Source: a virus. Taken from it: a stretch of DNA of 64,000 nucleotides. This document shows positions 1,446 to 3,544 of this stretch, piece after piece; positions within the stretch are counted from its first letter, which is position 1; each line of letters opens with the position of its first letter. The stretch lies in IMG/VR virus record IMGVR_UViG_3300050821_002231, positions 38,897 through 102,896 of that record. One strand, written 5' to 3'. The translations under genes were made by a program, and so were the position numbers. The notes beneath the pieces were generated by a model. The model was not told the DNA's origin, made no database searches, and saw only the letters and a program-made list of their open reading frames with translations.

Positions 1446-1475
1446 TTGACATCTCTATCGTGATTCACTAGTATT
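1446..1475 (+). promoter_or_regulatory. Sigma70 promoter of the TIGR-Tas operon with overlapping operator
   Basis: TTGACA (1446)-17 bp-TAGTAT (1469); GATTCACTAGTATT at 1462-1475. Confidence 0.8.
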
Positions 1476-1502
1476 CCTCTTGTGAGTGCAAGCGCAACAA
1501 GA

Positions 1503-1554
1503 GTGCGGTCGGCCAATGCGCTCGTGAAATCCACGCAAAGCCTGCCGACCGCAC
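1503..1554 (+). ncRNA. TIGR-like stem-loop guide unit 0
   Basis: gtgcggtcgg-CCA-atgcgctcg-TGAAATCCA-cgcaaagcc-TG-ccgaccgcac; perfect 10-bp closing stem. Confidence 0.88.
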
Positions 1555-1575
1555 AGAGTTCTGAAGGAAAAACGA

Positions 1576-2124
1576 ATGAGTAAGACGGAATACGCAGCAG
1601 CGGCCTATGAAAAGTGGGCCGCTTGGAGAGAGTCAGGAAAAGAGCCGTCGCACGATAGGGCGATGAAGATCGTCCAGCGCGAATTAGGGAAAACGAATGG
1701 CTTGGGCGTTGAATATGCTGTTCCATGCGACGATGGCAGACCCGATGACCGCCTCTCATTCATCGTCTGGGATTTGACCGAGAACGGACGCGGAGCACTC
1801 GACTACGACAAGCAAGACGGCTTCATCAAGAATCTGTTGGAGCAAGCCCGCATGATCGTAAGTGGAGTTTATGCGCGTGACTCAGTAAAGATCGGCGGGC
1901 GATGGAGCAGTTACCCGAGAACGATGCAAACCCCAAATCGCGGCAGAGTGAGGATTACGGATACGACCGCAGAGGAGCGGGAGATGGAGGCGGAGCGCAT
2001 GATCCGCGTTGCGAAAGGAATGATTCTGCGATGGAAGGGTGTCGCTGGAATTGACTGGAAATTTATCCGTTCTGTGCTTTTGCGGTTGGCTCGCGAAGTC
2101 CGGAAGGAATGGAAGATAGCTTGA
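1576..2124 (+). CDS. Hypothetical protein embedded in the TIGR array
   Basis: 182-aa ORF with RBS (aagga), flanked on both sides by guide units. Confidence 0.8.
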   Translation: MSKTEYAAAAYEKWAAWRESGKEPSHDRAMKIVQRELGKTNGLGVEYAVPCDDGRPDDRLSFIVWDLTENGRGALDYDKQDGFIKNLLEQARMIVSGVYARDSVKIGGRWSSYPRTMQTPNRGRVRITDTTAEEREMEAERMIRVAKGMILRWKGVAGIDWKFIRSVLLRLAREVRKEWKIA

Positions 2125-2126
2125 AA

Positions 2127-2396
2127 GGTTCGGCCACGCATGATGTGAAAACCACGGGAAATCTGCTGAACCAAGGGAGGGCGGTCCACACCAAAGGTGA
2201 GAAACCACCTTTACCGTGACCGCCCTCAAGATAACAGTTTCGTCGCCGGTGAATAAGTGTAAACCATTAGTGTGCTGCGGCGACAAGGTTGGTGCGGACC
2301 ATCCGCGGAGTGTAATCCAAAGTCCACTTGTCCGCACCGACCAAAGAACTTAGTCGGGCCAGGCTGCCATTGAAAACCACGATCATCATGCCCGAC
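2127..2396 (+). ncRNA. TIGR-like stem-loop array, units 1-5
   Basis: Units at 2127-2172, 2177-2227, 2240-2284, 2287-2342 and 2353-2396. Each has stem-CCA (CCG in unit 3)-N9-TG(N4-5)CCA-N9-TG-stem with unique spacers and unique complementary stems. Confidence 0.9.
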
Positions 2397-2416
2397 AAGA
2401 GAAAGAAGGAACGAAG

Positions 2417-3406
2417 ATGCTAACGCTACATCGGAAGTACAACGGAGTCGCTAAGGAACCTGTGTTCTATGTCGCAGACAACGGCAAAGCAAAAGAAGTG
2501 AAAGGTGCCAAGGCGCGAAGTTGGCTGGCGAAACTTGGAAAGAAGGTGCGACTACTTTCGACTTCCGCGCATTCGAGTGACGCCACGCTGCTGCAATTGG
2601 CAGAGCAAGGCGTGACGATCTTTACTGCCCACTGGCACAACACGGGCATAGACAAAGGCATGGAGCCGAAAGAAATTGCTCTGGCATTTTCGCGGCTGGA
2701 AGATTCCGTCCTGCGTCCTTATGTCCCGCGGCCTGACTTGTCGCGATTGCGCGGATTGGTTACGGTTCGGAATGCAGTATTGGAATATCGAAAAGGAGCT
2801 GCTAGTCAGATAGGCTCTGCCATCCGGTCGCTAGGGGTTTCCATAGACCGGCTTCCCTCTTTTGTCGCGTTAGAGCAAGAGGAACTTGATGCCGACAGTT
2901 CGCCCATTGAGGCCAAGTGCGCCCGCGAGTTGACGGCGGAAGCAAAGAAAATCCAAGAGTGCAAAACGTTCAATCGCGTCTTCGGAATGAAAAACGGCTG
3001 GATTGTCGCGGCACAATTCGTCTCGGCGATTGGAGATATCAGCCGCTTCCCGAATGTTGCAGCCTTTTGGCATTATCTGGGGCAGCATGTAGTGAACGGC
3101 AAAGCGCCGAAGCGTGCCAGGGGCGCGGCGAACGATTGGAATCCTGGCGCACGATGCACGCTTTGGAAAACGATTGACGCTGGCCTTAAGAATAACGTGC
3201 CATTGATACGCGCCATGTACGAGGATTACAAGGCAGAAGAACTCGCGGCACATGACGTGAAGTGCCCAAACTGCGAAACGAAAGTGGGACATTGCGGCGC
3301 ACGTGCACGGCGACGTGTGACAAAGGAACTTCTAAAACAGTATTACGTCGCAGCGGGAGGCACTGGTAAAAAGATGCCAGCCAGCGCCTTCTTGGTTGCG
3401 GCATAG
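2417..3406 (+). CDS. Tas-like RNA-guided DNA-binding protein (degenerate RuvC-like N-terminus, coiled coil, IS110/Nop domain)
   Basis: AIGDISRFPNVAAFWHYLG, KAPKRARG...WNP and GHCGARARRRVTKELL; flanked by guide arrays; no IS110 catalytic Ser loop. Confidence 0.85.
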   Translation: MLTLHRKYNGVAKEPVFYVADNGKAKEVKGAKARSWLAKLGKKVRLLSTSAHSSDATLLQLAEQGVTIFTAHWHNTGIDKGMEPKEIALAFSRLEDSVLRPYVPRPDLSRLRGLVTVRNAVLEYRKGAASQIGSAIRSLGVSIDRLPSFVALEQEELDADSSPIEAKCARELTAEAKKIQECKTFNRVFGMKNGWIVAAQFVSAIGDISRFPNVAAFWHYLGQHVVNGKAPKRARGAANDWNPGARCTLWKTIDAGLKNNVPLIRAMYEDYKAEELAAHDVKCPNCETKVGHCGARARRRVTKELLKQYYVAAGGTGKKMPASAFLVAA

Positions 3407-3544
3407 ATTCCGCCATAAGGCCCTTCGAAGACCATGCGAAGACTGCGGAATGTCTGCCAATCAAGATGTGAAGCCCATCGACCTTCTGCGTATTAAGGGT
3501 CGGCCCATTCGCTGACTGAAAACCAAAAGAGCAGTGGCCGACCC
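3407..3544 (+). ncRNA. TIGR-like stem-loop array, units 6-8
   Basis: Units at 3407-3451 (loop variant TCGAAGACCA), 3452-3494 (weak stem) and 3497-3544, with the same architecture. Confidence 0.87.

Follow-up and report, generated by a model that had tools for sequence, protein, structure and literature searches.

Stem-loop TIGR arrays were described by Faure et al. 2025 (PMC12045711) as arrays in which variable palindromes take the place of edge repeats. Their sub-arrays have intergenic regions between them, and processing of the units yields RNAs of one hairpin each. Xu et al. 2026 (bioRxiv 10.64898/2026.09.09.750476) catalogued 2,559 stem-loop arrays, with arrays on both sides of tas, and reported the structures of two stem-loop TasR complexes, in which RuvC is inactive and one of which contains a protein of 329 amino acids (aa). 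According to the same work, RuvC-inactive stem-loop TasR and TasA repress transcription without cutting, and stem-loop Tas proteins are devoid of the C-terminal Tyr/His (Y/H) processing dyad. Here, a locus of this kind was analysed in the IMG/VR virus record IMGVR_UViG_3300050821_002231. The stretch under study, termed the window, comprises 64,000 nucleotides (nt), i.e. bases 38897-102896 of the 102,896-bp record, and positions given below refer to it. On its + strand, the region 1446-3560 holds a promoter-like site, guide unit 1, a 182-aa open reading frame (ORF), units 2-6, a 329-aa ORF (tas) and units 7-9, in this order (Table 1). Each of the two ORFs is preceded by an AAGGA ribosome-binding site, and no terminator-like sites were seen between the units in this region. 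We read the locus as a TIGR-Tas system of the stem-loop type, encoded by a tailed phage from soil and probably acting as an RNA-guided DNA binder, with a probability of roughly 0.9. A TIGR-Tas identity had been proposed before by a sequence-only reading of the window; it was borne out by the Tas-like sequence and fold of the 329-aa protein, by the design of the units, and by the presence of the same units beside orthologous tas genes.

With PateTasR (329 aa) and CsTasR the locus shares a compact protein made up of a RuvC-like domain, a coiled coil and a Nop domain in which canonical catalytic residues are absent, hairpins of ~50 nt with two 9-nt spacers, arrays flanking tas, and a short tail without the Y/H dyad. 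It differs from PateTasR in box C, which is CUU there and CCA here, and further in lacking CUU as a stem-base motif (6 of the 60 units compared below). It differs from both proteins in a Cys/His cluster inserted before the last helix and in the 182-aa gene within the array. PateTasR and CsTasR originate from a candidate phyla radiation (CPR) bacterium and the present locus from a soil phage, and the likeness is one of published descriptions. TaTasR (PMC12045711; structure 9MTY) has the CCA/UG boxes, the 9+9-nt spacers and the 9-nt inner loop (box D, 4 nt and box C) in common with the locus, whereas its RuvC domain is active (D11) and cuts both strands, and its 36-nt units have conserved edge repeats in place of the variable stems found here. 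Variable palindromic stems and gene-split sub-arrays are also known from the stem-loop TasA proteins PlTasA, BlTasA and MbTasA (PMC12045711; bioRxiv 10.64898/2026.08.11.744272). These bind DNA without cutting it, as may be the case here, but lack the RuvC-like domain whose fold the present protein retains. Assignment of the locus to the published stem-loop TIGR class is supported, all defining features that could be tested having been found.

The 329-aa protein was compared with proteins of known structure and with family models. In a search of the PDB with the single sequence, TaTasR (9MTY) was the best match (E 1e-14) and TasH came second; when a profile built on 20 metagenomic relatives was used, the E values were 2.7e-28 for 9MTY and 2.9e-15 for TasH. 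IS110 recombinase chains were not matched at E <= 1 in the sequence or profile search, and the N-domain alone matched no PDB chain by sequence. The closest protein relatives are 72% and 61% identical. In NCBIfam, the TIGR_Tas_endo model (NF052498) gave 87.9 bits (E 9.3e-25) and was aligned from position 4 to 213 of its 215 positions.

An AlphaFold model of the protein (predicted local distance difference test score, pLDDT, 87.5; predicted template modelling score, pTM, 0.84) shows an N-domain of the order beta-beta-beta-alpha-beta-alpha-beta-alpha, a pair of long helices and a C-domain composed of helices. Foldseek ranked 9mty first, over the full length. In VIA-align, the Z score was 20.4 for TaTasR (9mty_B; model 1-319 against chain 7-300, 22% identity), ~15 for IS621 and ISCro4 (model 1-315), 14.9 for TasH (9w04; model 49-319, further TasH entries from ~105), 7.1 for Nop5 (model ~103-315), and ~6 for RuvX, YqgF and RuvC, which matched the N-domain (1-99). 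As judged by the model, the 329-aa protein has the architecture of TasR. The comparison with Tas, Nop5 and IS110 that had been suggested along with the TIGR-Tas proposal thus places solved TasR and TasH nearest, and the protein far below the IS110 thresholds.

The gene had previously been called an IS110/Nop-domain gene. The Nop-type part of this designation is backed by the Nop5 match; the IS110 part is not, given 19.8 bits with the NCBIfam IS110 model NF033542 against a cut-off of 140. An ordinary IS110-family transposase, with the hairpins as bridge RNA or element ends, would explain why the sole Pfam match is Transposase_20 (PF02371; E 3.9e-4, borderline at 21.2 bits against a cut-off of 21.3), why PHROGs assigns the protein to a family named 'transposase', and why IS621 is a structural neighbour. 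The IS110/IS621 structures (8WT6, 8WT9) indeed share the arrangement of RuvC-like domain, coiled coil and Nop/Tnp domain at Z 15, and the paired loops of the IS110/IS621 guide RNA read both DNA strands, to which the spacer pairs here may be likened. However, IS110 and IS621 possess DEDD acids, which are absent from the present protein. They also use one bridge RNA with two loops instead of eight to nine tandem dual-spacer units, and no element ends were found here. In addition, the layout of gene plus array recurs in different phages, and no IS110 chain reached E <= 1 while Tas chains reached 1e-28. An ordinary IS110 transposase, which the sequence-only reading had named as the case that would overturn it, was excluded on the scores, the missing DEDD acids and the tandem units, and we consider it barely credible.

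Guide units were searched for in the window with the strict pattern CCA-N9-TG-N3-7-CCA-N9-TG, and the chance level was derived from first-order Markov shuffles of the window. Seven matches were obtained, all of them on the + strand between 1513 and 3536 (box C starts at 1513, 2134, 2186, 2299, 2359, 3457 and 3505) and none on the - strand; the shuffles contained 0.59 strict matches on average over both strands, with a maximum of 4. A relaxed search, which allowed up to one box mismatch and required five or more pairs in the flanking stem, gave eight units in the region. It added those at 2246, with CCG as first box C, and at 3413, with TC as first box D, and found one chance-level match elsewhere in the window (51248). 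Nine units were thus counted in total, seven strict and two with one mismatch, with spacers of 9+9 nt. All nine spacer pairs listed in the sequence-only reading were correct, and its unit starts agree with the spans computed from pairing. Two units with variant boxes exist, as it had stated, but they are units 4 and 7 rather than 3 and 6.

Minimum-energy folding returned the expected hairpin for all units except unit 8. Sequence and covariation show a stem of 7-12 bp that closes a loop, in which box C (CCA), spacer A (9 nt) and box D (UG) are followed by an A-rich turn of 4-5 nt and then by box C, spacer B (9 nt) and box D. The inner loop is 5 nt long in units 3 and 7 and 4 nt in the others. 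Spacers A and B of unit 3 are partly complementary to one another. Unit 7 begins directly after the tas stop codon, which would be taken into an extended stem (3400-3458). Repeat finders had been expected to miss such an array, and the one used here recovered just a fragment, with three partial copies. The single promoter said to lie ahead of the units is present as the sequence TTGACA-17-TAGTAT, but a single occurrence in 3.6 kb does not exceed the chance level, and it is regarded as a candidate. A unit-like element inside tas (3104-3169), with a 6-bp stem, CCA-N9-CG, a 12-nt loop and CCT-N9-TG, was rejected; it scored 13.2 bits (E 0.72) with the covariance model described below, is not conserved in orthologues and is probably due to chance.

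Table 1. Features of the TIGR-Tas locus and selected phage genes in the window.
Feature	Position	Strand	Properties
Promoter candidate	1446-1474	+	TTGACA-17-TAGTAT, sigma-70-like; 10/12 consensus matches; 5' of unit 1
Guide unit 1	1503-1554	+	10-bp stem; spacer A 1516-1524, spacer B 1534-1542; covariance model 46.3 bits, E 6e-9
182-aa protein gene, candidate Tas partner	1576-2124	+	inside array, between units 1 and 2
Guide unit 2	2127-2172	+	7-bp stem; covariance model 38.3 bits
Guide unit 3	2177-2227	+	9-bp stem, 5-nt loop; covariance model 27.0 bits
Guide unit 4	2238-2285	+	first box C CCG; covariance model 19.2 bits, E 0.025
Guide unit 5	2287-2342	+	12-bp stem; covariance model 43.1 bits
Guide unit 6	2350-2399	+	7-9 bp stem; covariance model 37.9 bits
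tas, 329 aa	2417-3406	+	RuvC-like N-domain 1-99, coiled coil 106-178, Nop-type C-domain ~190-313, Cys/His cluster 279-293
Guide unit 7	3407-3449	+	5-7 bp core stem; first box D TC; 5-nt loop; covariance model 27.1 bits, E 3e-4
Unit 8	3452-3493	+	strict pattern match; closing stem nearly absent
Guide unit 9	3497-3544	+	9-bp core stem (extended span 3490-3551); covariance model 40.8 bits
Large terminase	19151-20800		
Portal	24314-27199		
Tape-measure protein	43211-46183		

Full-length orthologues of the Tas protein, 25-61% identical, were available from IMG/VR (L001, L002) and from metagenomes (L010-L018). In the loci with enough flanking sequence (L001, L002, L010-L012, L014, L016 and L018), 2-12 like units each were found on the tas strand, located upstream of tas, downstream, or both. 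L013 repeats the units of L014, and L015 and L017 have one one-mismatch unit in common. The more distant Tas relatives L004 and L005 adjoin classical 36-nt dual-repeat arrays. Sixty units from nine loci could be aligned without register problems. Counted over stem and box pairs, 81% of the cells were paired in these units, compared with 52% after shuffling and ~40% when the partner was slid. The covariation score was 0.73 versus 0.19, and 13 of the 14 stem pairs were altered on both sides. The pair between box C and box D at the stem end is C-G in 58 of the 60 units, and the inner pair between box D and box C is G-C in 57. The 3' linkers are rich in purines, with AAG following 21 of the 60 stems. 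The stem of unit 3 recurs with different spacers in unit 2 of L010.

A covariance model, proposed earlier as a check, was built from the 60 units. Eight units of the window scored at E <= 0.025 (Table 1); they had been part of the training set, so that their own scores are not independent, whereas the absence of others is informative. Nothing credible was detected beyond these eight when the window was scanned with filters off, and the whole phage genome, scanned under default filters, gave no further credible match. The statement that the stems differ in sequence and keep their pairing holds for eight units and fails for unit 8, which has one mismatch in a stem of five positions.

Intergenic G+C-rich hairpins are frequent in phages, and the units might be taken for hairpins that arose by chance, or for intrinsic terminators separating phage genes. 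We regard this as next to impossible in view of the excess of strict matches on one strand within 2 kb, the fixed position of the boxes relative to the stems, stem covariation over 60 units, and the same design beside every examined orthologous tas with enough flank; moreover, T-tracts after the stems are absent. Another reading takes the hairpins as guides of the box C/D kind, which would direct RNA modification or target RNA instead of DNA. The C-terminal Nop fold and a layout that mirrors box C/D small RNAs (sRNAs) speak for it. However, an Rfam search of positions 1000-4500 matched no family, C/D sRNAs included, at E <= 1, and the boxes are CCA/UG instead of RUGAUGA/CUGA with K-turns. No fibrillarin or L7Ae neighbour was found by Pfam or NCBIfam, so that the hallmarks of box C/D ribonucleoproteins are absent from the locus. 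As TaTasR is, in addition, inactive on RNA substrates, we give RNA guides a slim chance.

With the locus read as a stem-loop TIGR-Tas system, it may be asked whether its protein cuts DNA or binds it. In the 20-sequence family alignment, no conserved Asp or Glu was found in the N-domain (1-99). The acidic RuvC catalytic residues of nuclease-active TasR are missing, and His, Thr and His stand where catalytic acids would be expected in a RuvC-like domain. Residues that are invariant or nearly so in the N-domain are H5, located where strand 1 ends, T49, which follows strand 4, and W73, H74 and G77, which follow strand 5. The offset of the structural alignment (1-319 against 9mty 7-300) puts H5 at or beside D11 of TaTasR, a mapping that is approximate; the D11A mutant of TaTasR does not cut. 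Because the catalytic acids are missing and because PateTasR, CsTasR and MbTasA repress, the complex would most likely bind and block DNA as a transcriptional repressor or roadblock without cutting.

We propose the following course of events. One transcript, probably started from the promoter candidate at 1446-1474, would comprise unit 1, the 182-aa gene, units 2-6, tas and units 7-9. By analogy with complexes of TasR, TasH and PlTasA whose structures are solved, the purine-rich linkers would be cut by host RNases, and a Tas dimer would hold each unit of ~50 nt through its two box C/D pairs. Spacers A and B would then pair with opposite DNA strands of a contiguous 18-bp site that needs no protospacer-adjacent motif (PAM); one strand of the site would read, 5' to 3', spacer A and then the reverse complement of spacer B. 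This geometry is proposed because box C is located at the DNA unwinding junction (Guan et al. 2026) and because TaTasR cleavage leaves 3' overhangs. As in the related repressors, the bound complex would act as a roadblock rather than as a nuclease, and its targets would lie outside the phage's own genome.

Several observations weigh against this picture. First, no natural target was found in the phage's own genome, in other phages, in IMG/VR or in species genomes, and DNA targeting is proposed by homology; in the TIGR-Tas papers, too, natural targets are not yet assignable for spacers this short. The suggestion of the sequence-only reading that competing elements or host genes are the target is a conjecture, for which no convincing target emerged. 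The nine 18-mers, in both half-site orders, had no match with up to 2 mismatches in the 102,896 bp of the phage, and at the same threshold the spacers carried by the present phage and by L001 and L002 matched none of the three whole phage genomes. In IMG/VR, units 1 and 5 had one exact match each, in unrelated G+C-rich contigs, which corresponds to the chance level. Second, unit 8 has perfect boxes and nearly no stem: its flanks pair at ~4/5 positions, it fails the stem test and receives no covariance-model score. It is possibly decaying or dependent on a neighbouring unit. Third, the CUU stem-base motif, known from other clades and reported as widespread though not strictly defining, is not a feature of this clade, CTT being found near the 5' stem base in the six units mentioned above. 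Fourth, the 87.9 bits obtained with NF052498 lie below the equivalog cut-off of 100 of this model, so that the protein appears as a divergent relative and not as an equivalog under the NCBI rule. Fifth, the sole RNA contig obtained among Logan contigs is located inside tas and possibly represents carried-over DNA. It is an identical 151-nt contig from a soil metatranscriptome (run X4) which covers only positions 2826-2976 and is uninformative on the units; as to tas expression, it is a weak hint. Finally, an unconventional catalytic site might be formed where the active site used to be, by the His, Thr, Trp and His residues conserved there.

The last point leads to a variant of the TIGR-Tas reading in which the system cuts or nicks DNA, either by an unconventional site formed by H5, T49, W73 and H74 or by a recruited nuclease such as the 182-aa protein. 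The RuvC-like fold has been kept, the residues of the former active site are (nearly) invariant over 20 relatives, which suggests that they continue to be important, and a conserved partner gene sits inside the array. On the other hand, the 182-aa protein has no match to any nuclease fold, and we know of no two-metal RuvC or RNase H nuclease that functions without acidic ligands. In vitro, no cutting was seen with two TasR proteins of the stem-loop class whose active sites are substituted and which acted as repressors, and a residue in the RuvC domain of PateTasR touches box D, which provides a non-catalytic ground for conservation (Xu et al. 2026, bioRxiv 10.64898/2026.09.09.750476). Cutting is therefore regarded as unlikely, and binding without cutting is retained as the preferred mode of action. 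If so, a 329-aa, PAM-free DNA binder with guides of ~50 nt may be of use as a compact repressor scaffold.

Among the 185,579 species genomes, the 18-mer of unit 1 had 109 matches, 17 of which fall in one ADOP/MacB-like permease gene present in single copy per genome in Acidobacteriota genome bins. The gene contains the 18-bp target of unit 1 as an exact copy. Its 17 copies (loci among L080-L179) come from bins assigned to different species; being 97-99% identical to each other over 198 nt, they count as one event. Units 3 and 5 had no match with up to one mismatch in five of these Acidobacteriota genomes, and unit 3 had 2 one-mismatch matches in 401 Acidobacteriota genomes, compared with ~15 for a reversed control. 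The permease was rejected as evidence for a host or target, since it represents a single event and the other spacers are not above control; the match was judged to be due to chance.

Further characteristics of the Tas protein concern its C-terminal part and its conservation. The Cys/His cluster (H279, C283, C286, H292 and C293; window 3251-3295) precedes the last helix, is specific to the clade, with the consensus H..KCP.C....GHCGARARRR, and is not present in TaTasR. The cluster has the look of a small zinc-binding insert ahead of the last Nop helix. The C-terminal tail of 16 residues (314-329) contains neither Tyr nor His, and tails are not conserved in the family. Many Tas orthologues end in short Ala-rich tails (..LVAA, ..AAA, ..AAD, ..MAV) which resemble C-terminal degradation tags. 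In a related strain (95-99% identical), ~26 of the 31 listed differences in tas affect third codon positions, a bias that points to purifying selection on the gene.

Comparison of closely related arrays revealed differences that are concentrated in the spacers. The tas genes of L001 and L002 are 88% identical. In the nine units shared by their arrays (L001:4974-6181 and L002:4926-6128), the scaffolds are 93% identical (334/360), whereas identity of the spacers is 32% (52/162); an exception is one unit in which 16 of the 18 spacer positions are identical. In the strain from run X2 (95-99% identical to the present phage), unit 4 has kept its stem, has the box CCA instead of CCG, and differs in both spacers. 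In the same strain, the stretch 2322-2406 (unit 6 region) is replaced by 84 different letters. Both spacers thus appear to have been exchanged in place, with hairpin, boxes and loop unchanged. A diversity-generating retroelement is an unlikely source of the spacer changes because these are not confined to adenines. In L014, units 2 and 3 form a tandem duplicate and differ at four positions of spacer A only.

The second gene of the locus encodes a 182-aa protein. In L014, L015 and L016, homologues of it are encoded within the array or next to it (tblastn E 5e-10 to 1e-5). A weaker relative lies at the equivalent place in L001 and L002; it scored 14 bits with a profile of the others (conditional E 4.5e-6) and has the W..W..EP, WD..N and Y motifs, too. 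The invariant residues of the family are W17, P24, W65, D66, N70 and Y77. At E <= 1e-3, the family comprises 79 cluster representatives (50% clustering) among 1.84 billion proteins. The longest contigs encoding the closest relatives of Tas and those encoding the closest relatives of the 182-aa protein are of equal sizes, 31,391 and 103,287. The gene is missing from the short flanks of L010, L011 and L012; its association with the array is therefore frequent, not universal.

The 182-aa protein matched no family in Pfam, PHROG and NCBIfam. Fold searches gave no match (Foldseek best E 0.9, VIA-align best Z 4.8), the ESM Atlas contained nothing usable, and nothing was found when viral contigs were scanned with the profile of the protein. 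The only partner mentioned by Faure et al. 2025 (PMC12045711) is ParB-like and accompanies some dual-repeat tasA genes. As in these tasParB-tasA operons (PMC12045711, fig. S14 and Methods), where arrays lie upstream, downstream or between the genes, the second gene here would be operonic with tas. The published case, however, concerns dual-repeat TasA loci, and the 182-aa protein has no ParB signal in Pfam; the best ParB row in the fold search (E 1.6) was not significant.

We tentatively propose that the clade possesses an undescribed second component, the array-embedded family of ~180 aa, and renews its guides by swapping both spacers in place, a combination that seems possible rather than probable. 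If true, a role of the partner in renewal or guide processing would bear on how TIGR arrays acquire spacers. The partner gene and the spacer exchange touch two questions left by the papers, namely spacer acquisition and whether Tas acts alone.

ORFs with HNH-endonuclease-like motifs are located shortly downstream of several related arrays (L001:6209-6679, L002:6095-6616, L015:2860-3231, L016:3463-3729 and L012:1574-1882). None was detected beside the array of the window. These candidate ORFs may be ordinary phage HNH genes.

The record originates from a soil metagenome (run X1), and a strain 95-99% identical was present in two further soil metagenomes. Terminase, portal and tape-measure genes are encoded in the window (Table 1), and the contig is therefore a tailed phage, of ~103 kb, from soil. 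The locus is a clean and complete example, in a nearly complete phage genome, of a compact RuvC-dead TasR with canonical CCA/UG boxes. As regards the host, the search for tRNA genes in the phage yielded none, an IS1-like element of the phage gave no more than short weak matches in Acidobacteriota genomes, and no relative of tas was found in the species genomes. The terminase shares 31-37% identity with its nearest matches, which belong to B3-like siphoviruses and to others resembling transposable phages, from Proteobacteria and cyanobacteria; its relatives are spread over many phyla and give no clear host signal. Nearly all genes of the window are carried on the + strand. At the very start of the window (71-316), an ORF of 81 aa resembles acyl carrier proteins and contains a DSLD motif.

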